Shown here piece by piece: positions 27,940 to 62,966 of a DNA stretch of 64,000 bases. Position 1 is the stretch's first letter. Every line of letters starts with the position of its first letter. The stretch comes from a virus: the IMG/VR virus record IMGVR_UViG_3300035436_000036; one strand, given 5' to 3'. The notes below the pieces were generated by a model, which saw only the letters and a program-made list of their open reading frames with translations, did no database searches and had not been told where the DNA came from. The translations under genes and the position numbers were made by a program.

Positions 27940-28016
27940 GCGCCGTTAGCTCATCTGGATAGAGCGCGAAACTTCTAATTTTGAGGCAGCAGGTTCGAGT
28001 CCTGCACGGCGCACCA
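27940..28016 (+). tRNA. tRNA-Arg (anticodon TCT)
   Basis: Cloverleaf folded by eye; T-loop TTCGAGT, CCA encoded. Confidence 0.7.
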
Positions 28017-28021
28017 TATAC

Positions 28022-28096
28022 ACTCCCGTAGCTCAACGGTAGAGCTGACCGCTCATAACGGTTAGGTTAGGGGTTCGAATCCCTTCGGGAGTACCA
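28022..28096 (+). tRNA. tRNA-Met/Ile2 (anticodon CAT)
   Basis: Cloverleaf, T-loop TTCGAAT, CCA encoded. Confidence 0.7.
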
Positions 28097-28097
28097 T

Positions 28098-28175
28098 GTC
28101 ACGGTGGCAGAGTGGTCCAATGCACAGGTCTGCAAAACCTGAAAGCCGCGGGTTCGAATCCCGCCCGTGACTCCA
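28098..28175 (+). tRNA. tRNA-Cys (anticodon GCA)
   Basis: Cloverleaf, T-loop TTCGAAT, CCA encoded. Confidence 0.6.
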
Positions 28176-28181
28176 TATTGA

Positions 28182-28628
28182 GTGAGTACAATGATTGAAG
28201 AAGCGAAGCAAGCGATTATAGCATCAAGTCAGCAGTCCTCTGTCTACATTGGCTGTGACTCGATTCGTTTCAGAAAGAACAAGCAGTGGTACGCCAAGTA
28301 CTCTACTGTCGTAATCGTTCACATGGATACCAATAAGGGTGGAAGAATATTCCACTCTTCTGTAGACATGCCTGACTATGGTAACTTGAAGCAACGCCTG
28401 CTGATGGAAGTACAGCTTGCTGTTACAACTGCAACAGAGATTGTAGATGTAATCGGTGACCGTCACTTCGAGATCCATTTGGACATCAATCCGAATCCAA
28501 ACCATAAGTCTTCGGTTGCGGTCAAAGAAGCTCTTGGCTGGGTCAAGGGTTCACTCGGTATGGATGCTAAGATCAAGCCTCACAGCTTTGCCGCTACTCA
28601 TGCTGCGGATCACGTAGTCCGACATTAA
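28182..28628 (+). CDS. Hypothetical protein (148 aa) immediately after tRNA cluster
   Basis: ORF; no motif recognised. Confidence 0.5.
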   Translation: MSTMIEEAKQAIIASSQQSSVYIGCDSIRFRKNKQWYAKYSTVVIVHMDTNKGGRIFHSSVDMPDYGNLKQRLLMEVQLAVTTATEIVDVIGDRHFEIHLDINPNPNHKSSVAVKEALGWVKGSLGMDAKIKPHSFAATHAADHVVRH

Positions 28629-28629
28629 C

Positions 28630-28670
28630 TGTTGACCTTTTCGTGAAAATGTCCGATAAGGTATTATATA
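28630..28670 (+). promoter_or_regulatory. Early promoter cassette copy (GTTGACCTTTTCGTGAAAATGTCCGATAAGGTATTATATAAT)
   Basis: Repeat family member. Confidence 0.6.
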
Positions 28671-28687: not shown

Positions 28688-29836
28688 ATGAACTACGAAT
28701 TTCCTACCATCCGAAACATCTCTGATGTACTGCCTGCTATCGAAGGTCGCGACGAATTCGTTGTGGCTGTCAAGGAAGGTTACACTGTCATCAATTACAA
28801 TGTGATGATGGCTGATACGTTCGACTGTGACATTCGTCGCGAGTGTCGTGGTATCATCTTCGATACTGAGTCGGGTGAGATCCTTCGTCGTCCGTACCAC
28901 AAGTTCTTCAACGTCAACGAGCGTGAAGAGACTCAGGACAATGTAGTCGATCTGTCGCAGTCACATGCTATCCTCGAGAAGCTTGATGGCTCGATGATCG
29001 CTCCGTTCATTGTGAATGGTCAAATGATCTGGGGTACGAAGATGGGTGCTACTGAGGTGGCAGAGCCTGTCGAGGACTTCGTCGAGCTCAACGAAGAGTA
29101 TCGTATATTTGCGCGGTTTACAATCCGCCGTGGATATACTCCTATCTTCGAATGGTGTTCGCGCAAGCAGCGCATCGTTCTTGATTATAAAGAAGATCAG
29201 CTTATTCTGACTGGTATTCGTGATCTTACGACTGGTCGATATATGTCCCACGATCTTATGGTAGCGCATGCCGAAGCATATCGTATTCCTACGGTTCGTA
29301 CGTTTGAACCTGAAACTGATATGAAGGCTTTCGTTGAAACTGTTCGTGATCTAGAAGATCGCGAAGGCTTTGTTGTTCGTTTCTCTGATGGTCATATGTT
29401 GAAGCTCAAGTGCGATTGGTATGTTCAGATCCACAAGGCCAAGGAAAAGATCCTTCAAGATCGTAACATCGTTGAGTTGATTCTTGATGATAAGCTCGAT
29501 GACGTGAAGGCTCACTTGCCTCAGGAAGATCGTGATCGGTTAACTGTGTTTGAGGATGACTTCAATTGGTCGCTTGCTGATACGGTTTTCATGTTAGATA
29601 ATGATCTTAGCTGGATACGCGAACAAGATATTGATCGTAAGACGTTTGCTCTCGAGCATGCTGGAAGGTACGATCAGTATATGCGAGCACTGATCTTCAA
29701 GAACTTTGAAGAACTTGGCCACCCAAAGCTTTGGACTGATGTTCGTAACACGATTCGTAACAACCTGACCAAGACTGTAAAGTACGAAGCAATTCGTGAT
29801 GCTTGGTTTCCTGGAGTGATTTACAATGAAGTCTAA
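28688..29836 (+). CDS. rnlA: RNA ligase 1 (T4 RnlA-like)
   Basis: Nucleotidyltransferase motif I EKLDGSMIAPF (T4 Rnl1 KEDGSLVST); 382 aa vs 374 aa for T4 RnlA. Confidence 0.7.
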   Translation: MNYEFPTIRNISDVLPAIEGRDEFVVAVKEGYTVINYNVMMADTFDCDIRRECRGIIFDTESGEILRRPYHKFFNVNEREETQDNVVDLSQSHAILEKLDGSMIAPFIVNGQMIWGTKMGATEVAEPVEDFVELNEEYRIFARFTIRRGYTPIFEWCSRKQRIVLDYKEDQLILTGIRDLTTGRYMSHDLMVAHAEAYRIPTVRTFEPETDMKAFVETVRDLEDREGFVVRFSDGHMLKLKCDWYVQIHKAKEKILQDRNIVELILDDKLDDVKAHLPQEDRDRLTVFEDDFNWSLADTVFMLDNDLSWIREQDIDRKTFALEHAGRYDQYMRALIFKNFEELGHPKLWTDVRNTIRNNLTKTVKYEAIRDAWFPGVIYNEV

Positions 29837-30044
29837 GTTTATTGCTCAAGAGATCGAACAATTAGTCACCACCTATATGACAGAGATTGGTCTTCAGACT
29901 TATTTCCGTAAGCCGCATGAAATGTTGCAAACTGACCAACGGTGGAAGATTCAAAAGATTGAAGCTCTTTGTCGGGAACTTCAAAAAAAGGTTCAGTCGC
30001 TCAGTGCAGACCTTATAAAGGAATTGGATAAAAAAGATGCCTAA
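29826..30044 (+). CDS. Hypothetical protein (72 aa)
   Basis: ORF. Confidence 0.4.
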   Translation: MKSKFIAQEIEQLVTTYMTEIGLQTYFRKPHEMLQTDQRWKIQKIEALCRELQKKVQSLSADLIKELDKKDA

Positions 30045-30519
30045 GTGTATTATTCTCGTTGGTGTTCCTGCATCTGGTAAGTCTACTTGGCACCGCAACA
30101 AGTTTGGTGAGTATCCGCCGGCTGTGGCGTCAACAGATAAAATAATCGAAGCAGTAGCTAGCAGCTACGGTATGACATATGATGAAGGATTCAAGGGACT
30201 GATTCAGTTTGCCGAACAGATAATGTGGAGGCAAATTACTACATGTCTGATGCGTGGATCTGACTTTATTATTGATCGCACTAACCTGTCGGTGAAGTCT
30301 CGTAAGAAGTTTATCGATAAGCTCAAGCTGCATCGCTACGAGATCGAGTGTGTAGTCTTCCCGATGCCTGGTAGTGACGAGCTGTCATCAGATGAGTGGA
30401 ATCGTCGCCTGAACTCGCGTCGAGGTAAGACTATCCCAGGCTACATCCTCTCGTCGATGATTGAGCATTATGAGCCACCTACGCTTGCAGAAGGTTTTTC
30501 GAAGATCACGATCATTTAG
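30037..30519 (+). CDS. Polynucleotide 5'-kinase (T4 Pnk kinase domain only)
   Basis: [21 protein letters not shown] vs T4 Pnk [29 protein letters not shown] vs ISDTNLN; ends with RRG like T4 SKRG; no fused phosphatase domain. Confidence 0.75.
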   Translation: [160 protein letters not shown]

Positions 30520-30522
30520 TTG

Positions 30523-30560
30523 TTGACCTTTTTGTGAAAATGTCCGATAAGGATATATCA
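30523..30560 (+). promoter_or_regulatory. Early promoter cassette copy
   Basis: GTTGACCTTTTTGTGAAAATGTCCGATAAGGATATATC + conserved leader CAAGAGTGAAAAGGAAG. Confidence 0.6.
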
Positions 30561-30582
30561 AGAGTGAAAAGGAAGATTGGTT

Positions 30583-30801
30583 ATGAAATACGATTTTGAA
30601 CAAGTTGCTGACGCTTTCGCGTTTCTCGACACTCTTCGTGAGTTTGGTAGCGTCAATATGTTTGGTGCTGCAACCTACGTAGCAGAAGAACTGGGTCACG
30701 ATAAAGCGACCTCACGTGAACTCGTCTCAATGTGGATGAAGTCGTTTGATGGTGAAGTGACCGCCGAAGATCGCGCGCGGTCGTTTGGAGAAATGGTGTG
30801 A
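30583..30801 (+). CDS. Hypothetical protein (73 aa)
   Basis: ATG after conserved leader. Confidence 0.4.
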   Translation: MKYDFEQVADAFAFLDTLREFGSVNMFGAATYVAEELGHDKATSRELVSMWMKSFDGEVTAEDRARSFGEMV

Positions 30802-31421
30802 CTAGATTCGTAAACAGGTTCGTTATCTCTGACCATCACCTTGGTCATACGAACTCGTGGGAAAAGTTCAAGCTAGAGGATGGTAGTCCTCTCCGTCCGT
30901 TCTCCTCTAACGAGGAAATGAACGAGACTATGATCGAGCGTCACAACGCTAAGGTCAAGGAGCAGGACACTGTCTACTTCCTGGGGGATGTTGTCATCAA
31001 CAAGAAGTATCTCGAGCTGGTGAAGCGGATGAACGGTCGTAAGATCCTCGTTCGTGGCAACCACGACATCTTCGGAGACGAGCTCTACTACGATGCAGGG
31101 TTCGAGCAGATCCATGGTGTTCGTGTGTTCGTGGATAAGTTCATCCTGAGCCATATCCCTCTACATCCTGATTGTGTGACAGAACGGTTCCGTGTCAACG
31201 TACACGGCCATCTTCATGCGAACCAGGTTATGAGCTGGCAGATCATTGATGAAGATCCGGTGTACAAGCCTGATCCTCGTTACCTTTGTGTATGTGTCGA
31301 GCAGACTAACTTTACGCCTTTGCATTTTGATGAGGTCGAGAAATTGATTCAACAGCGTTGGAAAGATTCAGAATACGAAGGGCCGGTGAAGGCCTGGGGA
31401 AATGGAAGTGGACCTAACTAA
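30798..31421 (+). CDS. Calcineurin-like metallophosphoesterase (candidate RNA 2',3'-phosphatase, Pnkp-type)
   Basis: Motifs SDHHLGH, GDVV, RGNHD, SHIP, GHLH. Confidence 0.7.
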   Translation: MTRFVNRFVISDHHLGHTNSWEKFKLEDGSPLRPFSSNEEMNETMIERHNAKVKEQDTVYFLGDVVINKKYLELVKRMNGRKILVRGNHDIFGDELYYDAGFEQIHGVRVFVDKFILSHIPLHPDCVTERFRVNVHGHLHANQVMSWQIIDEDPVYKPDPRYLCVCVEQTNFTPLHFDEVEKLIQQRWKDSEYEGPVKAWGNGSGPN

Positions 31422-31597
31422 TGAGTAAAATGATTTTAAGTTTTCTTATACTGTTTGCATTGGCGTTCGTCGGTGTGAAATTCTTTGTTGCTGCAACTGG
31501 TAGAGAAAAAATTCAGTTGATTAAATCACTGGGTTATAGTATGGTAATAACAGTAGTGGTGATGTCCATCATTGCTGGTATCGTTATCTTGTTTTAA
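31421..31597 (+). CDS. Small membrane protein (58 aa, two TM segments)
   Basis: ORF not in track; ATGA overlap with previous gene; hydrophobic. Confidence 0.3.
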   Translation: MSKMILSFLILFALAFVGVKFFVAATGREKIQLIKSLGYSMVITVVVMSIIAGIVILF

Positions 31598-31609
31598 AGG
31601 AAGTATATT

Positions 31610-32407
31610 ATGAATCGTATTGCAAAAGCTGCCGTCCTCGTTGGTCTGATGGCCACTGCTTCGGCTTGTACTCGTATCGAAACTGGTGAAGTTGGTGTTC
31701 GTCGTTCGTTCGACAAGACCATTGAAACTACAGAGCTGATGCCTGGATCTGTTAACCAGACTATGTTTGGTGATGTTATGACCTTCCCAACGAAGGACGT
31801 TCAGGTTGACGTATCGGACTTGACCCCTTTGGCGTCAGACAATTCGACAGTCGCTGACTTCGATATGGCTGTCATCTACTCGATCAATCCTGGTTCGGTT
31901 GCCGAACTGTATATCGAGAAGAACCGTGGCTTCCATGCCGAGACCGAAGAAGGTGATACTCTGTTGATGTATAACTACATTCGTCAGCTTGGTCGTAACG
32001 CTGCCTACAAGGTTGCACGTAAGTACGAGTCGTTGAAGATGGCTGACAACCGTGCAGAGATCGAACAGCTCGTTCGTCAAGAGATTGTCAACCAACTTGC
32101 TTCTGAGAAGCTTGATGGATCGATTGCAATCTCGCAGGTTCTGGTTCGTCAGATCAAGCCTGCAGCGAACATTGTAGCCTCGGCCAACCAGCTGGTGCAA
32201 GCGCAGAATGCTGAAAAGCAGAAGCAAGTAGAAGTTCGTACAGCGAAGTTGGAAGCAGAACGTATTGCTGCTCTTAACGCCAACGCTGGTGCAACGAAGT
32301 ACATGGAAGCAACTGCTCTCGTGACTATCGCAGAAGCTGTTAAGGAAGGCAAGGTCTCGACGATCATCGTTCCTTACGACTTCAAGGGAATTGTCAACGT
32401 AAAATAA
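31610..32407 (+). CDS. SPFH/band-7 (prohibitin/HflK-like) lipoprotein
   Basis: Lipobox ...TASAC; IETGEVGVRRSF SPFH start; Ala/Glu/Gln coiled-coil tail. Confidence 0.65.
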   Translation: MNRIAKAAVLVGLMATASACTRIETGEVGVRRSFDKTIETTELMPGSVNQTMFGDVMTFPTKDVQVDVSDLTPLASDNSTVADFDMAVIYSINPGSVAELYIEKNRGFHAETEEGDTLLMYNYIRQLGRNAAYKVARKYESLKMADNRAEIEQLVRQEIVNQLASEKLDGSIAISQVLVRQIKPAANIVASANQLVQAQNAEKQKQVEVRTAKLEAERIAALNANAGATKYMEATALVTIAEAVKEGKVSTIIVPYDFKGIVNVK

Positions 32408-32447: not shown

Positions 32448-32523
32448 GGACTCGTAGCTCAATTGGGAGAGCACCGCACTGTCACTGCGGAGGTAGTGGG
32501 ATCGAAACCCATCGAGTTCGCCA
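32448..32523 (+). tRNA. tRNA-Asp (GTC)
   Basis: Cloverleaf by eye. Confidence 0.7.
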
Positions 32524-32529
32524 GTTTGT

Positions 32530-32604
32530 GTCGGTGTGATGTTAATGGTAGCATGACGGTCTCCAAAACCGTTCGTCAAGGTTCGAATCCTTGCACCGAT
32601 GCCA
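32530..32604 (+). tRNA. tRNA-Trp (CCA)
   Basis: Cloverleaf by eye. Confidence 0.65.
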
Positions 32605-32629
32605 GACTTGTTCTTTCTCATTGTTGTTC

Positions 32630-32705
32630 GCGTCTGTAGCTCAGTTGGCAGAGCACTCCCCTGATAAGGGAGAGGTCGCAGGGTCAGGACCTGCCAGACG
32701 CACCA
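32630..32705 (+). tRNA. tRNA-Ile (GAT)
   Basis: Cloverleaf by eye; atypical T-loop GTCAGGA. Confidence 0.6.
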
Positions 32706-32761
32706 TTATGGGGTTGCTACCTAATAAGCACGCGAGGGGCCACGGTTAGCTCCTCAACATT

Positions 32762-32851
32762 GGAAGCGTGTCAGAGTGGTCGATTGATCTGGTCTTGAAA
32801 ACCAGCGTAGGCGCGAGTCTACCGTGGGTTCGAATCCCACCGCTTCCTCCA
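32762..32851 (+). tRNA. tRNA-Ser (TGA), type II
   Basis: Long variable arm, T-loop TTCGAAT. Confidence 0.7.
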
Positions 32852-32852
32852 T

Positions 32853-32927
32853 GCGGACGTAGCTCAGTGGTAGAGCTTCTCGTTGCCAACGAGAAGGTCG
32901 TGGGTTCGAATCCCATCGTCCGCTCCA
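32853..32927 (+). tRNA. tRNA-Gly (GCC)
   Basis: Cloverleaf by eye. Confidence 0.7.
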
Positions 32928-32929
32928 AT

Positions 32930-33004
32930 GGCCCGGTCGTCTAATGGCTAGGACACCGCTCTTTCACAGCGGAGAAGAGGGATCGAAACCCTTTCGGGCT
33001 ACCA
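32930..33004 (+). tRNA. tRNA-Glu (TTC)
   Basis: Cloverleaf by eye. Confidence 0.65.
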
Positions 33005-33010
33005 GATTTA

Positions 33011-33098
33011 GGAACGTGGGCAGGACGGTAATGCAACGCACTGCTAATGCGTACAACCTGTAATGGGTTGACAGGGTTCGACTCCCTGACGTTCCGCC
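33011..33098 (+). tRNA. tRNA-Ser (GCT), type II
   Basis: Long variable arm, T-loop TTCGACT. Confidence 0.7.
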
Positions 33099-33269
33099 AA
33101 GTTTATGGAGTCGTGAACACGGTAATGGTCGATCGCAGCGTACAGGGGTGTTCGGGGGCGATTGGCAACTCCGCCAAGATGAGGGAAACGCTAGGGCAAT
33201 GTCAGACGGTGCCTGCGTAGCGGGTGTCGTGAGGTGCTGGGTAACCGGCGGGGTCTGACACGAGTTTAT
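33099..33269 (+). ncRNA. Unassigned structured RNA segment inside tRNA operon (possible stable small RNA like T4 species 1/2 RNAs, or degenerate tRNAs)
   Basis: ~170 nt between tRNA-Ser and tRNA-His; GTCAGAC...GTCTGAC inverted repeat; both halves start with AGTTTATGG like tRNA leaders; no convincing cloverleaf. Confidence 0.3.
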
Positions 33270-33345
33270 GGTGGTCGAGGTGTTAATGGATACATGCTGG
33301 ATTGTGAATCCGGAGTTGCGGGCTCGATACCCGTCGATCACCCCA
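33270..33345 (+). tRNA. tRNA-His (GTG) with G-1
   Basis: Extra 5' G paired to discriminator C; T-loop CTCGATA. Confidence 0.65.
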
Positions 33346-33346
33346 T

Positions 33347-33422
33347 GGGGATATAGTCCAACGGCAGAGACAGGGCACTTAAAATGCCTCCAGCGTGAGT
33401 TCGAATCTCACTATCCCTACCA
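33347..33422 (+). tRNA. tRNA-like, anticodon TAA, with short (type I) variable arm
   Basis: Good acceptor/T arms (GTGAG TTCGAAT CTCAC), anticodon loop CTTAAAA; UAA normally belongs to type II tRNA-Leu. Confidence 0.5.
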
Positions 33423-33531
33423 GAATTTAGTAGACAGTGGGGCCTTCAGAAATGATTGCTACTAATAGCTCACCTTAATGGTCGGTACACCACGGTAAGG
33501 AGCAACCCACCAAACTTTTTTAAAATAACTG

Positions 33532-33570
33532 TTGCCTTTTTCGAAAATATGTCCTATAAGGATATATAAG
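33532..33570 (+). promoter_or_regulatory. Early promoter cassette copy (TTGCCT variant)
   Basis: ACTGTTGCCTTTTTCGAAAATATGTCCTATAAGGATATATAAG. Confidence 0.5.
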
Positions 33571-33591
33571 ATGAAGAAAAAGGAATTGGTT

Positions 33592-33795
33592 ATGGAAGTT
33601 TTTGTTTTGATGGGTGCGATGGATCACGATGCACATTACGTTCTTGGTGTTTATGCTTCTGAACAAGAAGCTGTAGATGCCTTGGGTGTTTACCTTCGTG
33701 ACCTTGATGAATCTTGGCATGATCGTTATTATGTTGATCGCCGTGTGCTCGGTGCACATGCGGAATACGATTCCGATCCTTTTCGACATCTGTAA
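33592..33795 (+). CDS. Hypothetical protein (67 aa) between tRNA clusters
   Basis: ATG after AAAAAGGAATTGGTT leader (same pattern as 30583 gene). Confidence 0.4.
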   Translation: MEVFVLMGAMDHDAHYVLGVYASEQEAVDALGVYLRDLDESWHDRYYVDRRVLGAHAEYDSDPFRHL

Positions 33796-33802
33796 GTTTA
33801 AT

Positions 33803-33878
33803 GGACGATTAGCTCAGTCGGTAGAGCGCGGGACTCTTAATCCTTAGGTCATAGGTTCGAATCCTATATCGTCTACCA
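33803..33878 (+). tRNA. tRNA-Lys (CTT)
   Basis: Cloverleaf by eye. Confidence 0.65.
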
Positions 33879-34093
33879 AGTTCTATGTTGGGTATCACAT
33901 AGGTGTGTCCTGAGGGAGTCATGACCCAAGGGAGAATGGAGAAAATCTCATATAGGATGCATAATGCATAACCATCTTATGATTATGAGAGGATGCGATA
34001 ATCCCCGCCCGACGCCAAATTATCCGTACCATTTTATAGGAGGTTGTATATGTCACTGCGGGAAGCAAGAAGCTAGGTAAAAATTTTAAAAAG

Positions 34094-34357
34094 ATGATTA
34101 CTCTGTATGAGTATTTCGGTAAAGAGTGTGGTGGTCTAGATTGGAGCGATAGTGCTCTCTATGATCTATACGTATTCGAGTCTACTGGTAAAGGTAGCAT
34201 AAAGCCGAATAACGGATATGCATATGGCAAACACACTATAGATATAACAATCTCTATGTGGAAAGAGGACTTAGATAAGACCCTCTGGCTACATGAATTA
34301 TATCAAGATCCTAACCTACCAGATTGGTGGTTGGATAAAGTTTTTAAGGGTCGGTAA
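34094..34357 (+). CDS. Hypothetical protein (87 aa)
   Basis: ORF between tRNAs; W-rich C-terminus. Confidence 0.4.
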   Translation: MITLYEYFGKECGGLDWSDSALYDLYVFESTGKGSIKPNNGYAYGKHTIDITISMWKEDLDKTLWLHELYQDPNLPDWWLDKVFKGR

Positions 34358-34432
34358 AGCCGGTGGCTCCGGCAGTCAGACTGTAAATCTGATCCGTTCG
34401 CGGGGGAGGATCGATACCTCACTGACCCACCA
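34348..34432 (+). tRNA. tRNA-Tyr (GTA), type II
   Basis: Anticodon stem TCAGA/TCTGA, loop CTGTAAA, long variable arm; 5' end overlaps stop of upstream ORF. Confidence 0.6.
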
Positions 34433-34440
34433 AGTTTTAA

Positions 34441-34516
34441 TGCCCTTTGGTGTAATTGGCAACACGTCTGATTTTGATTCAGAAGAGTCCAGGTTCGAGC
34501 CCTGGGAGGGCATCCA
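34441..34516 (+). tRNA. tRNA-Gln (TTG)
   Basis: Cloverleaf by eye. Confidence 0.7.
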
Positions 34517-34525
34517 AAAATAAAT

Positions 34526-34558
34526 GTTGACTTATATCTAAAAATGAGATATATAATA
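34526..34558 (+). promoter_or_regulatory. Promoter internal to tRNA cluster 3 (TTGACT ... TATATAAT)
   Basis: Upstream of tRNA-Pro. Confidence 0.5.
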
Positions 34559-34567
34559 TACTAGTAA

Positions 34568-34643
34568 CGGGAAGTAGCTCAGGTGGGAGAGCGCGTGGTT
34601 TGGGACCACGAGGTCGCAGGTTCGAGCCCTGTCTTCCCGACCA
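34568..34643 (+). tRNA. tRNA-Pro (TGG)
   Basis: Cloverleaf by eye. Confidence 0.7.
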
Positions 34644-34647
34644 TTTT

Positions 34648-34723
<76 letters not shown>

Positions 34724-34730
34724 GAATAAA

Positions 34731-34804
34731 GCGGGCTTGGCGTAGAGATAACGTACCTGGCTTCCACCCAGGGGTCAAGGGTTTGATTCCCTTAGTCCGC
34801 ACCA
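34731..34804 (+). tRNA. tRNA-Gly (TCC)
   Basis: Cloverleaf by eye. Confidence 0.7.
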
Positions 34805-34810
34805 GAATAC

Positions 34811-34885
34811 GGCACAGTAGCTCAGTGGTAGAGCGACGGTCTCATACGCCGTCAGCCGGTGGTTCGAATCCATCCTGTGTCACCA
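34811..34885 (+). tRNA. tRNA-Met/Ile2 (CAT), second copy
   Basis: Cloverleaf by eye. Confidence 0.7.
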
Positions 34886-35033
34886 TTTAGGAATGTGAAT
34901 ATGAGAAGCGAGTCTGCAGAATGTGTGATGTATGTACCCGACACTCCTTTAAACAGGGCTGCGTTTACAGACGAAACGGTTTTGGCAGAGATATATAAAG
35001 TTTCGAATATTAAAATTGTGTTTAAAGATAATG

Positions 35034-35108
35034 GGGGATTAGCTCAGTTGGGAGAGCGATTGCTTTGCAAGCAATAGGTCAACGGTTCGATCCCGTTATC
35101 CTCCACCA
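35034..35108 (+). tRNA. tRNA-Ala (TGC)
   Basis: Cloverleaf by eye; G3-U70 present (GGGGGAT...ATCCTCC). Confidence 0.7.
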
Positions 35109-35397
35109 AGTTTTGTAGCGCCTAAGGCATAGCCCGAAGGATAACCAAAGGTTCACCGTATTGGGGGCTCGCTACAAAAAAATATAGACCACCTCGGCTG
35201 AACCCGTGAAGTGATAAAGACATTGTTGCAACATTGTTTTTATCTGGGAAGATTGCAACGTCCGGAAGTAAGCAATCAAGGCACACTGTAGGTGGTCACT
35301 CACATTGACTCCGACCTCTGGTTTTAAGTCCCGACCTGAAATGACAGGCGGTAACATATGTGTCCTAGGAAACGCATTTGTTTGGGAGTTTTTATTT

Positions 35398-35473
35398 GCC
35401 TTTGTAGCTCAGTTGGTAGAGCAGTGGATTGAAGATCCACGTGTCGGGGGTTCGACTCCCTCCAAAGGCACCA
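35398..35473 (+). tRNA. tRNA-Phe (GAA)
   Basis: Cloverleaf by eye. Confidence 0.7.
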
Positions 35474-35592
35474 CAAGTTTGGGACTAAGCGGTGTGAATA
35501 GGGAACCCGCTGAATATGGACTGCTAGTAAAACTGTTAAAACTCACCTATGAGAAGCAAGGCATAAGATCCCAAAACATTATGCTCCAATGG

Positions 35593-35675
35593 TGGAATGG
35601 TAGACACGCTAGTCTTAGGAACTAGTGCCTAGTGCGTGGGGGTTCGAGTCCCTCTTGGAGTACCAAGTTTAATGC
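35593..35675 (+). tRNA. tRNA-Leu (TAG), type II
   Basis: Long variable arm, discriminator A. Confidence 0.7.
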
Positions 35676-35683
35676 CGGATTAG

Positions 35684-35758
35684 CTCAGTGGTAGAGCGCC
35701 TCGTTTACACCGAGGATGTCGGGAGTTCGACCCTCTCATCCGGTACCACGCCCTCGTA
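35684..35758 (+). tRNA. tRNA-Val (TAC)
   Basis: Cloverleaf by eye. Confidence 0.7.
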
Positions 35759-35759
35759 G

Positions 35760-35836
35760 CTCAACTGGATAGAGCTCTTGATTACGAATCAAAAGGTTGC
35801 AGGCTCGAATCCTGCCGAGGGCACCAATTAACTGTT
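35760..35836 (+). tRNA. tRNA-Arg (ACG)
   Basis: Cloverleaf by eye. Confidence 0.65.
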
Positions 35837-35844
35837 GACATTAA

Positions 35845-35873
35845 CAGCTATAAGTACTATAAAGAATTATGAA
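35845..35873 (+). promoter_or_regulatory. Promoter (TTGACA N17 TATAAA) upstream of tRNA-Asn
   Basis: sigma70-like spacing. Confidence 0.5.
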
Positions 35874-35879
35874 GTTTAT

Positions 35880-35954
35880 TCCCCAGTAGCTCAGTGGTAG
35901 AGCAGGTGACTGTTAATCACCTGGCCGGTGGTTCGAACCCATCCTGGGGAGCCA
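35880..35954 (+). tRNA. tRNA-Asn (GTT)
   Basis: Cloverleaf by eye. Confidence 0.7.
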
Positions 35955-36381
35955 ATTTCAGTTAAGCAGTACCGTCTGCTGAACCAACGTATATACCCTA
36001 ACAGATTATACGTTGTAAACAAAACGGATGAAGGAAGTTCCTGTGGCGACCAAGCGATTGGGGGAAGATAGGAACGTAAAGAGCGAAATTACCGACTGTA
36101 GCGAGTCGACACCTCAGTAGCCTTCTTATTACTAACACCGCCGCCCGTATGGTGTATAACAATCCCGGGCCTAGTTTCGATATCGGCCTCGACGGAGGCT
36201 GTAAGAAGTGTGACTGAATAATCCCCTTGTCAGTGGGGATAAAGTAGACTCGGGGATTGGTCTCCCGCTCAACCGGCAAACGAGTCGTAGGCTGAGATTA
36301 CAGACTGTAATTGACTGGGCCTTGGAGGTATAACTGAATCCTCCCACTTCGCTTTTATAGATATTATGTTAGGAGATTATT
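35955..36381 (+). ncRNA. ~425-nt non-coding, comparatively GC-rich region downstream of tRNA array (candidate structured RNA)
   Basis: No credible ORF on either strand (only a 93-aa antisense ORF of poor composition); multiple local inverted repeats (e.g. CAGTGGGGATAAAG...GGGATTGGTCTCCC, CACCGCCGCCCGTATGGTG). Confidence 0.25.
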
Positions 36382-39349: not shown

Positions 39350-40044
39350 TGAAAAAGGCACTAGCACTTTTCATTATGTCTCTGATGACGAGTTCGTTAG
39401 CTTATGCACAGTCGACGACTAACTCGATTTTTATCGACCAAGTTGGTAACGGTAGTACAATTACAGTTACCCAGAAGGGTCAGAACAATAGAATTGGTTC
39501 TGAACAAAACCGTGTTGTGATTGAAGGCAACAACCAGACAATCACTTCTACGCAAGAAGGTAATAATAACCTTATTCAGGGTTCTATTACACAGGGCGAT
39601 AACGTCAGCATCGATTCGACCGTGACAGGTGACAACAATACAGTTACCTATGACATGGGTGATGCAGCAAGCGTTGCAGGTTCAACTAAGACACTCGCGG
39701 TGACAGGCGATTCGAACAACCTGACATTCAACCAGGGCACAGCAGCTTCGGCTACAGGGGCTACACAGAACATCACGTTCACCGGTGATACCAATACCTA
39801 TACCTCGACAATCAATACGGATGACGTAGTCAATGATATGACTATTGCTGGTGATGGTAACACGATCACAATGGTGCAAGATGGCACAGCTGGTAAGAAT
39901 GTTGAAATGGTGCTTACAGGCAGCACAAACAATGTTACTGTAAATCAAAAGAGCACAAACAATGTTGATACGATCAAGATCAATAGCACAAGCACTGGTA
40001 GCACTCTTGTTATTAATCAGTGCAACGCCGGCGGCCCTTGCTAA
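39346..40044 (+). CDS. Secreted curlin-repeat (CsgA/CsgB-like) protein candidate
   Basis: Signal peptide; ~20-residue imperfect repeats with Q-x-G-x-N-N / N-x-[VI]-T-x-x-Q cores, Gln/Asn/Thr/Gly-rich; encoded directly after csgF-csgG. Confidence 0.5.
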   Translation: MMKKALALFIMSLMTSSLAYAQSTTNSIFIDQVGNGSTITVTQKGQNNRIGSEQNRVVIEGNNQTITSTQEGNNNLIQGSITQGDNVSIDSTVTGDNNTVTYDMGDAASVAGSTKTLAVTGDSNNLTFNQGTAASATGATQNITFTGDTNTYTSTINTDDVVNDMTIAGDGNTITMVQDGTAGKNVEMVLTGSTNNVTVNQKSTNNVDTIKINSTSTGSTLVINQCNAGGPC

Positions 40045-41053
40045 TATTGGCAACGTAACGCAGGCGCGTGGTAATAGCGAAGTCGTGAAGAAAGCCACTA
40101 AGGTTCCTACACGACTTCAGCTACCTATTGCTAAGTTAGATAGAGTACAGACTGGAAACGGTAGAGTCGAGATCAAGTTTATCGACGACTCTACCGTCAG
40201 GGTAACAGAACATTCGAAGCTCGTGATCGACGACTTCGTCTATAGTGGTAAGCCATCCACTTCAAGAATGGCTCTCAAGTTTGCCTCTGGCACTGCTAGA
40301 TTCGCTACCGGTCAGTCTGGTAAGATGAACAAAAGCAACATCAATCTCAGAACACCCACTGCTACAATTGGTGTTCGTGGAACAGACTTCGCAGCAACCG
40401 TAGACGACTTTGGCAAAAGCCTTATCATTCTCCTACCCGAGCCAGATGGATCCGTGGGAGAAATCACTGTGTCTAATGCTGCGGGGTTCGTTATTCTCAC
40501 GAAAGCCTTCCAGGCCACCATCGTGTCGACAGCAGATAGTAGACCATCTCGTCCCGTGATCCTCAACCTGACACTGGATCAGATTGATAACATGCTGATT
40601 GTATCCCCAGCAGAAGAGGTTGATATGGGCGAAGATGCTGGCGAGACAAGATCAAATATCTTGGACTTATCAGAGCTCGATGTAGACTTCCTGGCTAAAG
40701 ATGATCTGAAAGAAGATCAGCTGGCGAGTTCGGATCTAGACATCAATGCAATCGATACCAACTTCCTTGGAGAAGACTTTCTCGATGATAGTCTTGCTGG
40801 AGGTGATTGTATCACACGTGAAGGTACGAAGCTATGCGGCACAATATTCGGTCTTGATAGCGTAACACAAATCACAACGATTCTATCTGGAGATTCAATC
40901 CGTCTCGTAAGAACTCTCGGCACTACTGTAGATGTCAGGTTCAAGAAGGACGAAAACAAAACTTTATACATAGATAGTAGTGGCAAGTCATTTTTGATCG
41001 AAATAAACGATCCAGCTGGGGGTACAATAATCAATGTCAAACAAAGTGACTAA
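39962..41053 (+). CDS. Secreted FecR-domain protein with acidic C-terminal region
   Basis: Clear signal peptide ALVALLLLISATPAALA; FecR-type core (TVRVTEHSKLVID ... TPTATIGVRGTDF); start overlaps previous gene by 83 nt. Confidence 0.6.
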   Translation: MLIRSRSIAQALVALLLLISATPAALANIGNVTQARGNSEVVKKATKVPTRLQLPIAKLDRVQTGNGRVEIKFIDDSTVRVTEHSKLVIDDFVYSGKPSTSRMALKFASGTARFATGQSGKMNKSNINLRTPTATIGVRGTDFAATVDDFGKSLIILLPEPDGSVGEITVSNAAGFVILTKAFQATIVSTADSRPSRPVILNLTLDQIDNMLIVSPAEEVDMGEDAGETRSNILDLSELDVDFLAKDDLKEDQLASSDLDINAIDTNFLGEDFLDDSLAGGDCITREGTKLCGTIFGLDSVTQITTILSGDSIRLVRTLGTTVDVRFKKDENKTLYIDSSGKSFLIEINDPAGGTIINVKQSD

Positions 41054-43091
41054 GGTCTTATTGTCCCCATGGCTGGCTCTCCTGACATTTGCTTTGCTAT
41101 TCGCAGTCAAGGTTCAGGATCCGTTCCTAGTAGAATCTGCTAGGCTTAAGTTCTATGATTACATTATGATCGACAAACCAGTCGAATCAAAAGACATAGT
41201 CGTTGTAAACATAGGGGAGAAAGCAATTGAAAAATATGGCCAGTGGCCTTTCCCGAGGGAAGTACATGCTAAGATTATTAGCGACCTTTATAGGGCAAAC
41301 GCTGGTCTCGTTGGTAGCACTATACTTATGCCTGAGCCTGATCGTATGGGGACTGATAGAGTTCTTGTCGATGTCCTGAAACAGGCTCCGGTTGTTCTCA
41401 GTCAGACTGTGAGCGACTCTTGTTCACGGGCAGGTGCGACAATTCGGAAGACAGGCGTTGCCGTAATCGGCGATGGAGAACCAACTGAATTTCTTCCTCA
41501 ATATCCGTGCGTTCTAAGTAATATCGCACCTCTTCAAGAAGCCGCAGCCGGTGTTGGGATAACATCAACCCTACCTGAGGCTGATGGGGTCGTGAGGCGA
41601 GTTCCTCTTCTAGCTCAATCTGAAAACGAATACTACCCCGCATTTGCTCTAGAGCTTCTACGTGTAGCTGCTGGAGATCCTTCGTATCAAGCGAAGATAA
41701 ATCAGACTGGTGTTGAAGCATTACGGATTCCTCAATTCGATACTATTAAGACGGATGAATATGGTCGCATATTTATTAACCCAAATTATAAGTTCAAAGA
41801 GATTGAACTGGGTGTTCCTACAACTGTAGACTTGAATCAAAAGATTGTAGTTTTAGGTGTAACTGCTGCCGGCATTCAGAATCCACTAGCAACTCCTCAA
41901 GGAGCTCAGTATCCTCAGAATGTACAAGCAAGCATCCTTCAGACACTACTAGACGGTGACTCTGTATCGATTCCACTTTGGGCTTCTTCTTTGGATTTGG
42001 CACTGCTATTATTCCTTACTATTGGTATCGTTGTCCTATCAAAGGTGAGATACTCTGTTGTATGGATCATGATATTGATCGGTGGGTATGTTTACCTACC
42101 TGTCTATTTATTCGCCAGTCAAAAGCTGCTACTTGACATTTCTTTCAATGTCTTCGCTGTTCTTATAATTTACCTACACATCTATACAGTAAAGTTCATC
42201 TCTGAATTCCTACAGAAGCAGCAGATCAAGAAGCAGTTCGGAACGTATCTCTCACCTGACCTGGTCGCAAAGCTCCAACGCAATCCTGAGCTTCTGGCTC
42301 TCGGTGGCGAAGAGCAAGAGCTGTCAATCATGTTCACAGACGTTCGTGGATTCACAACGATCTCAGAGCACTATGGTAAGGACGTTCAAGGTCTGACAAA
42401 GATCATGAACCGCTACATGACGGCTATGACAAAGGCGATCCTCGAGAACAACGGAACGCTGGACAAGTACATTGGTGACGCTCAGATGGCATTCTGGAAC
42501 GCACCTGTCGCAAACGAAAAACATGCTCTGGATGCTGTAAGAACATCCTTTGAGATGATGAAAGCCCTGGAGACATTTAATGCAGAAATTAAAGAAGAAG
42601 GCGTTCCAGCTTTCGGTATGGGTCTTGGTATTAACACTGCCACTGTGGTGGTTGGCAATATGGGTAGCGATCAGCGCTTTGATTATACTTGCCTGGGTGA
42701 CGGGGTTAATCTGGCTGCTCGTCTCGAAGGTCAGTCCAAGCCTTATGGCGTCAAACTCGTCCTCGGGTCTCGCACAGCGGACCTGGTTAGGGATGTATAC
42801 CAAGTAGTCGAGCTTGATCTAATAGCTGTTAAAGGTAAGACCGAACCGGCACGCATCTATACCGTGGTGGAGAACTTCGACACATACTCGCAGGTGATGC
42901 ATGATACGTTCCTGGATCTGTATCGCAAGGGCGATTGGGCCAGAGCGATAAAGCAGGCTCAAGAACGCAAGGCACAGGCCTGGGGCGGTGAGCTTGAGGC
43001 ATACTATGATATGATGATCGAGCGCAGCGCAGATATGAAGGCTGCTGGTGTAAAGAATTTTGATGGAATCTACAGAGCGACTTCCAAATAA
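41034..43091 (+). CDS. CHASE2-sensor class III adenylate/guanylate cyclase
   Basis: N-terminal TM + periplasmic CHASE2 region (DIVVVNIGEKAIEKYGQWPFPREVHAKII), three TM helices, cyclase domain with FTDVRGFTTISE ... KYIGDAQMAFWNAP ... GDGVNLAARLE. Confidence 0.85.
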   Translation: MSNKVTKVLLSPWLALLTFALLFAVKVQDPFLVESARLKFYDYIMIDKPVESKDIVVVNIGEKAIEKYGQWPFPREVHAKIISDLYRANAGLVGSTILMPEPDRMGTDRVLVDVLKQAPVVLSQTVSDSCSRAGATIRKTGVAVIGDGEPTEFLPQYPCVLSNIAPLQEAAAGVGITSTLPEADGVVRRVPLLAQSENEYYPAFALELLRVAAGDPSYQAKINQTGVEALRIPQFDTIKTDEYGRIFINPNYKFKEIELGVPTTVDLNQKIVVLGVTAAGIQNPLATPQGAQYPQNVQASILQTLLDGDSVSIPLWASSLDLALLLFLTIGIVVLSKVRYSVVWIMILIGGYVYLPVYLFASQKLLLDISFNVFAVLIIYLHIYTVKFISEFLQKQQIKKQFGTYLSPDLVAKLQRNPELLALGGEEQELSIMFTDVRGFTTISEHYGKDVQGLTKIMNRYMTAMTKAILENNGTLDKYIGDAQMAFWNAPVANEKHALDAVRTSFEMMKALETFNAEIKEEGVPAFGMGLGINTATVVVGNMGSDQRFDYTCLGDGVNLAARLEGQSKPYGVKLVLGSRTADLVRDVYQVVELDLIAVKGKTEPARIYTVVENFDTYSQVMHDTFLDLYRKGDWARAIKQAQERKAQAWGGELEAYYDMMIERSADMKAAGVKNFDGIYRATSK

Positions 43092-44911: not shown

Positions 44912-45325
44912 ATGAGCGAAGAACGCGTAGGTATTGTAGCAAGTTGTTTTGATCTGTTTCATGCAGGCCATATCCTTATGCTAATGGAAGCAAAGAAGGA
45001 ATGCGATCGATTGATCGTAGCCCTCCAGTCAGATCCTACAATCGATCGGCCCGAGAAGAATAAGCCGATTCAAGGTATGTATGAGCGATACATTCAGGTG
45101 GATTCGTGCGAGTATGTTGATCATGTAGTTCCATATGATACAGAAGCAGATCTTTATAATCTACTCGCAAGTTTCGACTGGAGTGTTCGATTCCTCGGCG
45201 AAGATTACATCGATCGTCGCGACTTCACAGGATCTGACCTAGACATTCCAATTCATTACTGTAGTCGCAAGCACGATTACAGCTCATCTAATCTGCGTCA
45301 GAAGATCACAGGTAAAGGCAAGTGA
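44912..45325 (+). CDS. Cytidylyltransferase-family nucleotidyltransferase (TagD/RfaE-II-like, HxGH)
   Basis: VASCFDLFHAGHILMLMEAKK vs B. subtilis TagD GTFDLLHWGHIKLLERAK. Confidence 0.6.
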   Translation: MSEERVGIVASCFDLFHAGHILMLMEAKKECDRLIVALQSDPTIDRPEKNKPIQGMYERYIQVDSCEYVDHVVPYDTEADLYNLLASFDWSVRFLGEDYIDRRDFTGSDLDIPIHYCSRKHDYSSSNLRQKITGKGK

Positions 45326-45744
45326 GCAAGTGGTCTGATCGCTTCCTAGCACTCGCAGAGCACGTTGCAGAATGGTCTCAGGATCCTTCAACGAAGGTTG
45401 GAGCTGTGATTGTGGATGATAAGAAGCGCGTGGTCTCTATGGGCTATAACGGCTTTCCACGTGGGATCAAAGACCTACCTGAGCGTTATAACAACAGCGA
45501 TACTAAGCATTTGTTTGTCTGTCACGCAGAGCGCAATGCTATCGACAACACTCCCATCTCAGTAGAGGGATGTACGATGTATGCTCTTCTAATGCCTTGC
45601 AATGAGTGTGCTAAGTCGATCATTCAGAGTGGTATCAAGAAGGTGATCACTTACAAACCTACCCGAGAGGATAAGTTTAATTGGGACATCACAAGAATTA
45701 TGTTCCAAGAAGCTGGAGTGATTCTGTACGAGATTGATAAATAA
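45322..45744 (+). CDS. cd: dCMP deaminase
   Basis: Zinc motifs CHAERNAI and PCNECAKSI. Confidence 0.8.
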   Translation: MSKWSDRFLALAEHVAEWSQDPSTKVGAVIVDDKKRVVSMGYNGFPRGIKDLPERYNNSDTKHLFVCHAERNAIDNTPISVEGCTMYALLMPCNECAKSIIQSGIKKVITYKPTREDKFNWDITRIMFQEAGVILYEIDK

Positions 45745-59463: not shown

Positions 59464-59703
59464 ATGACTAAGATTTCTATTGATTTGGATTATGAAGTTA
59501 TCGATGAGATTGTTCAGGGTCAGCTAGTACGTAGTTGGGAAGCTCTCAAGGATGACCTTGGAGCTGGTCGTAACATCTTCGTCTGGGGCGTCTTCCTCGC
59601 GGATGATGTAGAGATCCAGAAACATCTAGATGCATTTGAGCTTTTGATCAAATGGTATTCAACTCCTGATCAGCTTCGTGAGCTGGGTCTCAAGGTCGAC
59701 TAA
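59464..59703 (+). CDS. Hypothetical protein (79 aa)
   Basis: ORF. Confidence 0.4.
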   Translation: MTKISIDLDYEVIDEIVQGQLVRSWEALKDDLGAGRNIFVWGVFLADDVEIQKHLDAFELLIKWYSTPDQLRELGLKVD

Positions 59704-59704
59704 A

Positions 59705-60881: not shown

Positions 60882-60948
60882 GATCTTTCCTTGCTGCTTA
60901 TTTATAATTTTAACTACTACAAGCACGGTAAGAAAACACATAGGCTTT

Positions 60949-60980
60949 ATTTGAAACCGGCTTCGGCCGGTTTTCCTTTG
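60949..60980 (+). terminator. Stem-loop AAACCGGCTTCGGCCGGTTT + T-rich
   Basis: Perfect 7-bp GC stem with TTCG tetraloop. Confidence 0.45.
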
Positions 60981-61011
60981 TCTGATAAATAGACCATTAA
61001 CGTTAAACCGA

Positions 61012-62363: not shown

Positions 62364-62966
62364 ATGATAAAGAAACGTTTTAAAGAATTCATCGGTTCAG
62401 GCACCCTCACGATATTCGATATCGATGAGACCCTGTTCCATACCAAAGCCAAAGTAGCTGTCGTCAAGGACGGAAAGGTTGTTCGCATGTTGGACAATCA
62501 GGAGTTCAATACGTACAAGCGCAAAGCTGGCGAAGAGTACGACTTCAAAGAGTTTCGTTCTGCTGAGGTGTTCCGTAAGACATCTACTCCTATCGCAAAC
62601 ATGATTGCAAAGGCTAAGGCAATCGTCAAAGCGAAAAAGAATCCTGCTAGTCGTGCTATCATCGTTACGGCTCGTGCAGACTTCGATGACAAGGAAATGT
62701 TCCTACAGACGTTCCGTGATCATGGTCTTCCTATTGATCAGATGCACGTTGAGCGCTCAGGCAGCCTCGGTATTGATTCTCCTGCAGAAGCCAAGAAGGT
62801 TGTCTTCCGGAAGTATCTAAATACAAAGAACTACACAAAGACTCGCCTTTATGATGACGCAATGTCGAACATTAAAGCGTTTCTGGAACTCCAAGCAGAG
62901 TATCCCAATATCGAATTCGAAGCTCAGTTTGTCAAGGCTGATGGCTCAATCAAGAGGATCAAATAA
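62364..62966 (+). CDS. HAD-family phosphatase (candidate detached polynucleotide 3'-phosphatase or dNMP phosphatase)
   Basis: DxDxT motif FDIDETL; IIVTARAD motif II; K; LYDDAMS motif IV resembling T4 Pnk phosphatase domain (FDVDGTL, VVVSGRE, IDDRT). Confidence 0.6.
   Translation: MIKKRFKEFIGSGTLTIFDIDETLFHTKAKVAVVKDGKVVRMLDNQEFNTYKRKAGEEYDFKEFRSAEVFRKTSTPIANMIAKAKAIVKAKKNPASRAIIVTARADFDDKEMFLQTFRDHGLPIDQMHVERSGSLGIDSPAEAKKVVFRKYLNTKNYTKTRLYDDAMSNIKAFLELQAEYPNIEFEAQFVKADGSIKRIK

Follow-up and report, generated by a model that had tools for sequence, protein, structure and literature searches.

The question raised by IMG/VR record IMGVR_UViG_3300035436_000036, a viral stretch of 64,000 nucleotides that was analysed as a whole (the window), is whether an Rnl1-type RNA ligase, a stand-alone polynucleotide 5'-kinase-clade protein and a binuclear metallophosphoesterase (MPE), encoded close together, make up an RNA repair system, and whether a HAD phosphatase encoded far downstream belongs to it. 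All four open reading frames (ORFs) are present where the sequence-only reading had placed them, on the + strand (Table 1). The window probably encodes a modular heal-and-seal pathway for the repair of RNA (tRNA) breaks, of the same kind as Pnkp and Rnl1 of phage T4, with its functions spread over separate genes. Homology and intact catalytic motifs in the four proteins, the separation of the ORFs, the movement of the gene block between genome positions and its recurrence in distant phages form the computed basis of this reading. The domain matches lie far beyond chance (PF09511, 8.8e-35; AAA_33, 1.6e-16; phrog_547, 1e-48).

The window is T4-like phage DNA, with homologues of the gp44/gp62 clamp loader, RegA (PF01818, 9.1e-45), a B-family DNA polymerase, UvsX and a gp41-type helicase. 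None of 50,697 GenBank phage genomes contains near-identical DNA, the sole match being a 51-nt stretch of tRNA-Trp. Metagenomes are rich in close relatives, including contigs of approximately 158-160 kb with a shared gene order, and Synechococcus phages are the closest isolate relatives for several genes of the window. The loci compared below (L-numbers) comprise 13 IMG/VR relatives, six further metagenomic lineages and isolate phages.

The ligase is a divergent full-length member of the Rnl1 family, with a predicted sealing activity. It matches PF09511 (RNA_lig_T4_1) with 121 bits against a cut-off of 28.3 bits, phrog_562 at 2.5e-75 and, by phmmer, the T4 Rnl1 structure 2c5u at 4.5e-32 over residues 28-326. 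The motif I lysine, situated in EKLDGS, aligns with K99 of T4 Rnl1 (TKEDGS), and the earlier assignment to the Rnl1 type is thereby upheld. The T4 residues R54, K75, F77, K99, D101, G102, K119, E159, E227, K240 and K242, which are essential according to published mutagenesis, are all matched. The motifs ECRGI, HKFFN, KLDGS, GTKMG, FEW, EGF and LKLKCDWY are aligned with their T4 counterparts. TIGR02308 is aligned over model positions 24-368 of 373 with 161 bits, under the equivalog cut-off of 242 bits. The C-terminal domain PF20819 (T4_Rnl1_C) was not reported for the window ligase and is weak in the relative L042.

By its sequence, the kinase truly belongs, as a stand-alone protein, to the polynucleotide/tRNA-kinase clade, and a 5'-kinase activity is predicted for it. 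Besides AAA_33, its best PHROG matches are phrog_6931 (4.2e-17) and phrog_505 (Pnk, 3.5e-13), and the kinase end of phrog_8238 is matched as well. NCBIfam TIGR04075 (bacter_Pnkp) is matched by the kinase ORF only and not by the MPE. When a profile of seven phage kinases was compared with the PDB, the top 16 sequences, with E-values from 6e-13 to 3.5e-10, were chains of mammalian PNKP, PSTK, T4 Pnk, the Mucorales kinase, the CthPnkp kinase domain and Pnkp1; the next class, PFK2 and shikimate kinase, appeared only at 5e-4 or worse. BLASTP against T4 Pnk gave 4e-8 over residues 1-141. The P-loop reads GVPASGKST, and K15, S16, D34 (corresponding to the general base D35 of T4) and R128 (in SRRGK; T4 R126, the Arg in contact with the NTP phosphates) align with T4 Pnk. 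In the seven-phage alignment, G14, K15 and D34 are invariant and S16 varies. The IIDRTN motif resembles IDNTN of mammalian PNKP.

The separateness of this 160-aa protein, which the sequence-only reading had proposed, is equally borne out. A frameshift or fusion artefact was considered and rejected, since the ORFs are separate and the stop codons are conserved in 13/13 IMG/VR relatives, in the six further metagenomic lineages and in isolate phages. The ORF ends at 30519 with the EGF C-terminus typical of the family, and no DxDxT phosphatase lies in the same polypeptide. The family comprises 2375 homologues, the best 120 of which are all stand-alone proteins of 148-217 aa, and Rnl1 usually adjoins the stand-alone kinase. 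The kinase also aligns with the kinase half of phrog_6931, a 343-aa HD-kinase family, and matches gp055 of Campylobacter phage CP220, an HD-kinase fusion. Because Campylobacter phages carry fusions of kinase homologues with an HD phosphoesterase, the healing phosphoesterase modules appear to be interchangeable.

The MPE matches Pfam Metallophos at 1.8e-5, and its match to phrog_547 covers protein residues 5-194. In the PDB, its family profile finds aq_1665 of Aquifex aeolicus (1xm7) at 5.7e-25 over profile positions 4-168, full length, followed by GpdQ (7e-6) and the Pseudomonas putida Nuclease MPE (6nvo, 0.5). Residues D12, H14, H17, G63-D64, G87-N88-H89-D90, H119 and H136-G-H138-x-H140 do not vary among 15 diverse homologues. 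They constitute the binuclear metallophosphoesterase motifs DxH, GD, GNH[D/E], H and GHxH, a trait of the superfamily level only. The protein had been described as the phosphatase type used by bacterial Pnkp. This description holds for the superfamily motifs and fails at the level of the clade, which is that of aq_1665: no CthPnkp phosphatase or lambda-phosphatase chain in the PDB was matched by the profile at E<=1. Two other assignments were rejected. PdeM, a ligase-associated DNA-damage-response endonuclease (TIGR04123), reached 36.3 bits against a cut-off of 150 bits. The mycobacteriophage gp48 MPE, taken as a possible functional analogue, probably belongs to another subfamily, since the ten top organism names in the 1448 tblastn records include no Mycobacterium phage.

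In close relatives, the block composed of Rnl1, (o72), kinase, (o74), MPE, o58 and SPFH genes is conserved at two different genome positions. At the first, found in the window, L010, L021, L029 and L043, it lies after RegA, three tRNA genes and an RNaseH-like gene and ahead of a tRNA array. At the second, found in L012, L014 and L015, it is located between the gp41-helicase region and the equivalents of 57-62 kb of the window, with no tRNA genes nearby. Being intact at both positions, the block evidently moves as a unit, and the SPFH protein and o58 travel with Rnl1, kinase and MPE.

Rnl1 and kinase are adjacent, often with overlapping stop and start codons, in Cr30, RcXuper, RHph_I1_18, RpAliso, MD18, OC, BUCT-ZZ01, L041, L042 and L043, and they lie within approximately 2 kb of each other in L040 and L044. 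A phrog_547 MPE lies at most approximately 4.5 kb from the kinase in the window clade, L043, L041, L042, BUCT-ZZ01, OC, phiN3, L018 and L020. The gene order varies, being Rnl1-kinase-MPE in L043, MPE-Rnl-kinase in L041 and Rnl1-kinase-glycosyltransferase-...-MPE in L042. In L040, a Pfam Metallophos ORF is situated near Rnl1, and tblastn did not confirm its membership of the phrog_547 clade. Synechococcus phage BUCT-ZZ01, Ochrobactrum phage OC and Sinorhizobium phage phiN3 carry this gene set as well, at 29-50% identity. The complete 156-kb genome of BUCT-ZZ01 encodes a single kinase and a single MPE, both within the cluster, and no window-type or Pnk-type HAD at E<=1; hence, this phage offers no linked candidate for 3'-end healing other than the MPE. 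The closest isolate homologues of the MPE, in Caulobacter phage CcrPW and Brevundimonas phage Gurke (48-51% identity), lie 0.7-1.9 kb from the gene of the RNA ligase RtcB.

By analogy with the T4 Pnkp/Rnl1 paradigm, and given that HAD, HD and calcineurin-like healing modules appear interchangeable (PMC3592404, PMC3675462, PMC7824862), RNA ends would be the substrates, the MPE would be the 3'-end healer and the system may counter tRNA-cleaving host defences. A 5'-OH end left by metal-independent ribotoxins or anticodon nucleases would be converted into a 5'-phosphate by the stand-alone kinase. The 2',3'-cyclic or 3'-phosphate would be converted into a 3'-OH by a phosphoesterase, for which the adjoining aq_1665-type MPE is the likeliest candidate, and the distant HAD might assist it by acting on the resulting monoester. 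The Rnl1-type ligase would then seal the nick via the lysyl-AMP and AppRNA route.

The most specific form of this reading, in which the phrog_547 MPE acts as an RNA 2',3'-cyclic-phosphodiesterase/3'-phosphatase that replaces the HAD of T4 Pnkp in a mobile Rnl1, Pnk and MPE cassette travelling with an SPFH protein, is advanced tentatively, as a possibility rather than an expectation. It is from gene linkage only that we infer the end-healing role of the MPE, and a number of observations weigh against the repair reading or this form of it. The phrog_547 MPE occurs in 1448 phage records and the kinase in 41, so that most MPE genes must work without the kinase. In many phages, the MPE is situated among DNA-metabolism genes, flanked by a helicase and exonucleases in Bacillus phage Riley and beside nrdG, helicase and primase in Vibrio phage nt-1. 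There is no MPE next to Rnl1-kinase in Cr30, RcXuper, RpAliso, MD18 and RHph_I1_18, and in L018 a gap of 4.4 kb separates kinase and MPE, with no Rnl1 nearby. The nearest solved relative is the uncharacterised aq_1665, followed by a glycerophosphodiesterase and a single-stranded DNA endonuclease. The AlphaFold2 (AF2) model of the MPE, built on a shallow alignment of 80-99% identity, has a pLDDT (predicted local distance difference test) of 41 and is unusable for a fold comparison with the Pnkp phosphatase. In the kinase, the equivalent of T4 Pnk R38, a phosphoacceptor contact, is missing; Ile37 stands in its place in the alignment, and no family member has an Arg in the D-x-x-[IVL]-E stretch. 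T4 Rnl1 (gp63) also promotes tail-fibre attachment, and with this activity as a precedent the ligase could have a second role.

According to a rather unlikely alternative, Rnl1 and the kinase alone are a repair pair, and the MPE, which shares no more than a plastic region with them, serves as a general phosphoesterase or nuclease of the early genes, with DNA, cyclic nucleotides or something else as its substrate. The wide spread of phrog_547 and its genomic contexts point in this direction, including its place beside a Ser/Thr-phosphatase-like gene in T5-like phages. So do its distant relatives, among them PdeM and the P. putida Nuclease MPE, which is a single-stranded DNA endonuclease (PMC7826289), and the mycobacteriophage gp48 MPE, probably of a different subfamily, which damages host DNA (PMC12287305). 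However, at least eight lineages, at 29-50% identity and with several gene orders, have the MPE close to the kinase and/or Rnl1, the block moves as a unit, and BUCT-ZZ01 offers no other linked phosphoesterase; by our own estimate, a single 0.6-kb gene has a chance of ~6% of landing no more than 5 kb from a given gene when the genome measures approximately 160 kb. A far less probable alternative, indeed a very improbable one, makes the ligase mainly a tail-fibre attachment factor and lets the kinase act on another substrate, with no RNA repair at all. The annotation of phrog_562 as 'RNA ligase and tail fiber protein attachment catalyst' and the established dual role of T4 gp63 speak for it, but the residues for nucleotidyl transfer are all conserved in the ligase, and its tight, widespread coupling to a gene of the polynucleotide-kinase clade would have no rationale if it were purely morphogenetic.

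In the case of the distant HAD protein, the evidence on the proposed resemblance to the T4 Pnk phosphatase domain points both ways. The HAD motifs I-IV (DxDxT, S/T-x-R, K, DD) are present, with D19, D21, R104, K144 and D165 invariant and T23, T102 and D164 nearly invariant in 42 family members. The hhalign comparison aligns them with D165, D167, the SGR motif (R213) and D277-D278 of T4 Pnk and gives 92% probability against three Pnk-type phosphatases, which speaks for the Pnk type, and the best structural matches of the predicted model are the phosphatase domains of T4 Pnk (top) and Pnkp1. The location of the HAD gene approximately 3.7 kb downstream of the repair block in L014 and L015 also speaks for this type. 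The resemblance is weakened by the replication-module site and by the sequence searches. The protein matches phrog_415 at 7e-8, with no match to phrog_505, Pfam PNK3P or HAD_SAK, the last being the 'Swiss-army-knife' RNA-repair HADs of PMC7824862; Pfam at E<=10 lists NIF, DUF4372 and Vault, all non-significant. Pairwise BLASTP against T4 Pnk gives an E-value of 1.6, and neither phmmer nor hmmsearch with the family profile finds anything significant among PDB sequences. By tblastn at 1e-3, no match exists in the 50,697 phage records, and the gene is absent from every isolate phage. The fold neighbours include, at some distance, one SAK-HAD protein of a Pandoravirus (E 5.8e-6, TM 0.59).

The HAD protein may well stand outside RNA repair altogether, as a nucleotide-metabolism phosphatase, for example a (deoxy)nucleoside monophosphate ((d)NMP) or nicotinamide mononucleotide (NMN)-type nucleotidase, of the replication/nucleotide-metabolism module. 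Its gene is situated among replication genes, with DNA polymerase, UvsX and gp41 helicase upstream, also in relatives in which no repair block was seen nearby, and it is missing from all isolate phages with Rnl1-kinase(-MPE). The lack of a PNK3P or HAD_SAK match and of a PDB relative by profile, together with the poor BLASTP value, agrees with this placing, as does the presence of T5-type deoxynucleoside-5'-monophosphatases among the viral fold neighbours. In 20 long representatives that were scanned, the fusion partners of the HAD family are heterogeneous and mostly unannotated (ParB_N, HD_4, LysM/chitinase, dCMP deaminase). The only recurring fusion links are to dCMP (deoxycytidine monophosphate) deaminase (P0139; BFVD A0A6J5KPZ7) and to cytidylyltransferase-like domains (BFVD A0A6J5MBE6, A0A218MMM0). 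In the window, a cytidylyltransferase-like ORF (PF01467) and a dCMP deaminase ORF lie side by side at 44912-45744 (+). Since both domain types are fused to a window-type HAD in other uncultured phages, a shared nucleotide-metabolism pathway is suggested. Set against the motifs, the hhalign result, the predicted model and the location in L014 and L015, which favour the Pnk type, these observations make a nucleotide-metabolism role at least as likely as RNA 3'-end healing.

Compared with known systems, T4 Pnkp (PseT) and Rnl1 (gp63) share with the window a 5'-kinase, a 3'-end phosphoesterase and an Rnl1-family ligase. Kinase and phosphatase are fused in T4 and encoded by separate genes in the window, where the neighbour of the kinase is a metallophosphoesterase and not a HAD. 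The kinase motif is ISDTN in T4 and DRTN, closer to IDNTN of PNKP, in the window, and R38 of T4 has no equivalent there. In T4, pseT and gene 63 are situated at separate loci, and in the window ligase and kinase are adjacent and probably co-transcribed.

Among isolate phages, Caulobacter phage Cr30 has a split Rnl1 and stand-alone kinase as in the window. Ochrobactrum phage vB_OspM_OC has the order HAD, Rec-like, Rnl1, kinase, hypothetical and phrog_547 MPE, Synechococcus phage BUCT-ZZ01 the order SPFH ... Rnl1, kinase, three small ORFs and MPE, and Sinorhizobium phage phiN3 the order kinase, x, MPE ... SPFH. Rhodobacter phage RcXuper, Ruegeria phage RpAliso and Phaeobacter phage MD18 possess a stand-alone Pnk-type HAD 1.2-1.8 kb upstream of Rnl1-kinase. 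The window differs from these split sets by its 29-50% identity, by the different subfamily and distant site of its HAD and by the insertion of o72 and o74. In OC (L006, 2023-2367), the ORF between the stand-alone HAD and Rnl1 encodes a 114-aa 'response regulator', which may be the cRec domain tied to RNA ligases (PMC7824862).

The Pnkp/Hen1 system of Clostridium thermocellum and Pnkp1-Rnl-Hen1 likewise combine a kinase, a binuclear metallophosphoesterase and a ligase for 2',3'-cyclic-phosphate/5'-OH breaks, and in Pnkp1-Rnl-Hen1 the ligase can be a separate polypeptide (PMC3675462, PMC4411300). In contrast to bacterial Pnkp, the window MPE belongs to the aq_1665 clade, the ligase is of the Rnl1 type and not of the Pnkp (Rnl4) type, and no Hen1 methyltransferase is seen in the block. 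Xanthomonas phage XacN1 (L005, 3492-6566) carries a kinase homologue, a 429-aa methyltransferase and a 404-aa metallophosphoesterase in a row, which recalls the bacterial Pnkp/Hen1 layout. The HD-Pnk enzymes, represented by CP220 gp055, share the kinase half with the window; however, the window has no HD domain, its phosphoesterase being the separate MPE gene. The Mucorales fungi possess a biochemically proven stand-alone RNA 5'-OH kinase (PMC11571804), encoded, as in the window, apart from the ligase (PMC11571804, PMC10946426), and the Rhizopus structure 9d8a is among the PDB matches of the window kinase. This enzyme serves eukaryotic tRNA splicing, in which the ligase is of the Trl1 type and requires a 2'-PO4 end, and its similarity to the window kinase is distant. 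As regards the aq_1665/phrog_547 family itself, the window MPE is a full-length member with all metal-binding motifs, and most phage members are not beside RNA-repair genes.

Between the three enzymes, two small ORFs had been passed over in the sequence-only reading, at 29826-30044 and 30577-30801, and neither o72 nor o74 has a Pfam, PHROG or NCBIfam match. The ORF o72 is a variable insert: it is present in the window, L012, L013 and L019, with a 72-aa ORF at the same position in L029, and absent in L010, L011, L014, L015 and L021, where Rnl1 directly abuts the kinase. The ORF o74 occurs only in the window, L010, L029 and L030, and elsewhere the MPE begins approximately 47 nt after the kinase. 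The position of o58 within the block is kept in L010, L012, L014, L015, L021, L029 and L043, and an SPFH gene lies near the cluster also in BUCT-ZZ01 and phiN3 (loci: L039, 3-692; L004, 5809-6958). The overlaps of Rnl1 with o72, of o72 with the kinase, of the o74 stop with the MPE start and of the MPE stop with the o58 start suggest translational coupling, and these ORFs are probably coupled in this way.

Table 1. Positions of the Rnl1-kinase-MPE block, the features around it and the distant HAD gene in the window
Feature	Position	Strand	Size, evidence and remarks
Three tRNA genes (Arg-TCT, Met, Cys)	27940..28175	+	ARAGORN, Rfam; upstream of block
Promoter-like 30-nt repeat TTGACCTTTTCGTGAAAATGTCCGATAAGG	28632..28661	+	27 nt upstream of Rnl1 start codon
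Rnl1-type ATP-dependent RNA ligase	28688..29836	+	382 aa; PF09511, phrog_562, T4 Rnl1 structure match
Small ORF o72, no recognisable domain	29826..30044	+	72 aa; overlaps Rnl1 stop and kinase start
Stand-alone polynucleotide 5'-kinase-clade P-loop kinase	30037..30519	+	160 aa; AAA_33, phrog_6931, phrog_505, PDB profile
Promoter-like 30-nt repeat, second copy	30523..30552	+	just past kinase stop, ahead of o74/MPE
Small ORF o74, no recognisable domain	30577..30801	+	74 aa from TTG, 72 aa from ATG at 30583; stop overlaps MPE start (GTGA)
Binuclear metallophosphoesterase, aq_1665/phrog_547 clade; candidate 2',3'-cyclic-phosphate/3'-phosphate end-healing enzyme	30798..31421	+	207 aa; Metallophos, phrog_547, 1xm7
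Small predicted membrane protein o58	31421..31597	+	58 aa, hydrophobic; start overlaps MPE stop
SPFH/Band 7 lipoprotein-like protein	31610..32407	+	265 aa; Band_7 9.2e-14, phrog_200 2.2e-31
21-gene tRNA array	32448..35954	+	ARAGORN, Rfam; downstream of block
Stand-alone HAD (DxDxT) phosphatase; repair-system membership uncertain	62364..62966	+	200 aa; IFDIDETLF motif; 31 kb away

In addition, a 30-nt repeat family (TTGACCTTTTYGTGAAAAT-N5-GATAAGG) is found on the + strand ahead of small early-type ORFs and of the two cassette halves. Exact or near-exact copies are located at 28632, 30523, 43096 and 56616, with 0 expected by chance, and more diverged copies at 54798, 55090, 55669 and 56151 (54.8-56.2 kb). 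A copy exists at matching positions ahead of Rnl1 and MPE in L010, L021 and L029, and ahead of the MPE in the short contig L030. A promoter function may be inferred for it. Because the same repeat (TTGACCTTTTYGTGAAAATGTCCGATAAGG) precedes Rnl1-o72-kinase and o74-MPE-o58-SPFH, the cassette looks like two similarly regulated units.

The tRNA genes on either side of the block had been counted as 25 and, together with the repair genes, read as heavy investment against anticodon-nuclease defence. ARAGORN and Rfam each find 24, and the adjacency is not conserved; as several relatives (L012, L014, L015) have the cassette at a site without nearby tRNA genes, the link to the tRNA array is circumstantial. 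Between the upstream tRNA genes and Rnl1, an RNaseH-like protein is encoded (PF04308, 3.1e-25; 28182-28628, +), the C-terminal end of which has a weak tblastn match (3.5e-6, 38 residues) in the tRNA-processing cluster of Rhizobium phage RHph_I1_18, consisting of a CCA-adding enzyme, Thg1-like, Rnl1, Pnk and tRNAs. In L012, L014 and L015, this gene does not accompany the cassette. A manA RNA motif (Rfam RF01745) occurs just past the tRNA array at 36185-36354 (+) and scores 64.8 bits, the gathering score being 55.2. Cyanobacteria and cyanophages are known to carry this motif, which fits the Synechococcus phage affinity of several genes. In L021, ARAGORN calls a transfer-messenger RNA (tmRNA)-like gene (8268-8929, +; tag peptide ANDNNAYEGLALAA) downstream of the tRNA genes, and it calls none in the window.

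Elsewhere in the window, the ORF at 41034-43091 (+) encodes 685 aa, in which a CHASE2 sensor domain is combined with the catalytic domain of an adenylate/guanylate cyclase, and a FecR-domain ORF (39962-41053) precedes it; such a membrane sensor-cyclase is unusual in a phage. The region of L029 that matches this locus contains CsgF/CsgG-like genes. A NUMOD3 (homing-endonuclease-like) ORF at 60213-61145 (-), between a DenV-like pyrimidine-dimer glycosylase ORF (59678-60256) and the ORF at 61012-62322, is probably a mobile insertion. A PADLOC scan of six proteins gave no defence-system match.

The arrangement of the domains had been regarded as unusual, a view that does not survive comparison, since split sets already exist in Cr30, RcXuper, RpAliso, MD18, RHph_I1_18, OC, phiN3 and BUCT-ZZ01. 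In GenBank phages, the stand-alone kinase lies beside Rnl1 with HAD and/or MPE nearby and is often annotated as 'polynucleotide kinase'. Phage polynucleotide kinases and phosphoesterases are described as accompanying ATP-grasp RNA ligases (Iyer et al. 2021, PMC7824862), the HAD being fused to the kinase or stand-alone and the phosphatase sometimes being provided by calcineurin-like or HD domains (PMC7824862). The modular heal-and-seal principle is not new in view of T4 genetics and this published comparative genomics, so that the gain is incremental. The window adds another well-supported cassette, a clear biochemical candidate and evidence for joint movement of the cassette genes. If the proposed reading is true, abundant environmental cyanophage-like phages of the T4 type would mend ribotoxin-cut tRNA with a three-gene cassette and not with a fused Pnkp, and the large uncharacterised phrog_547/aq_1665 phosphoesterase family would gain a testable function.

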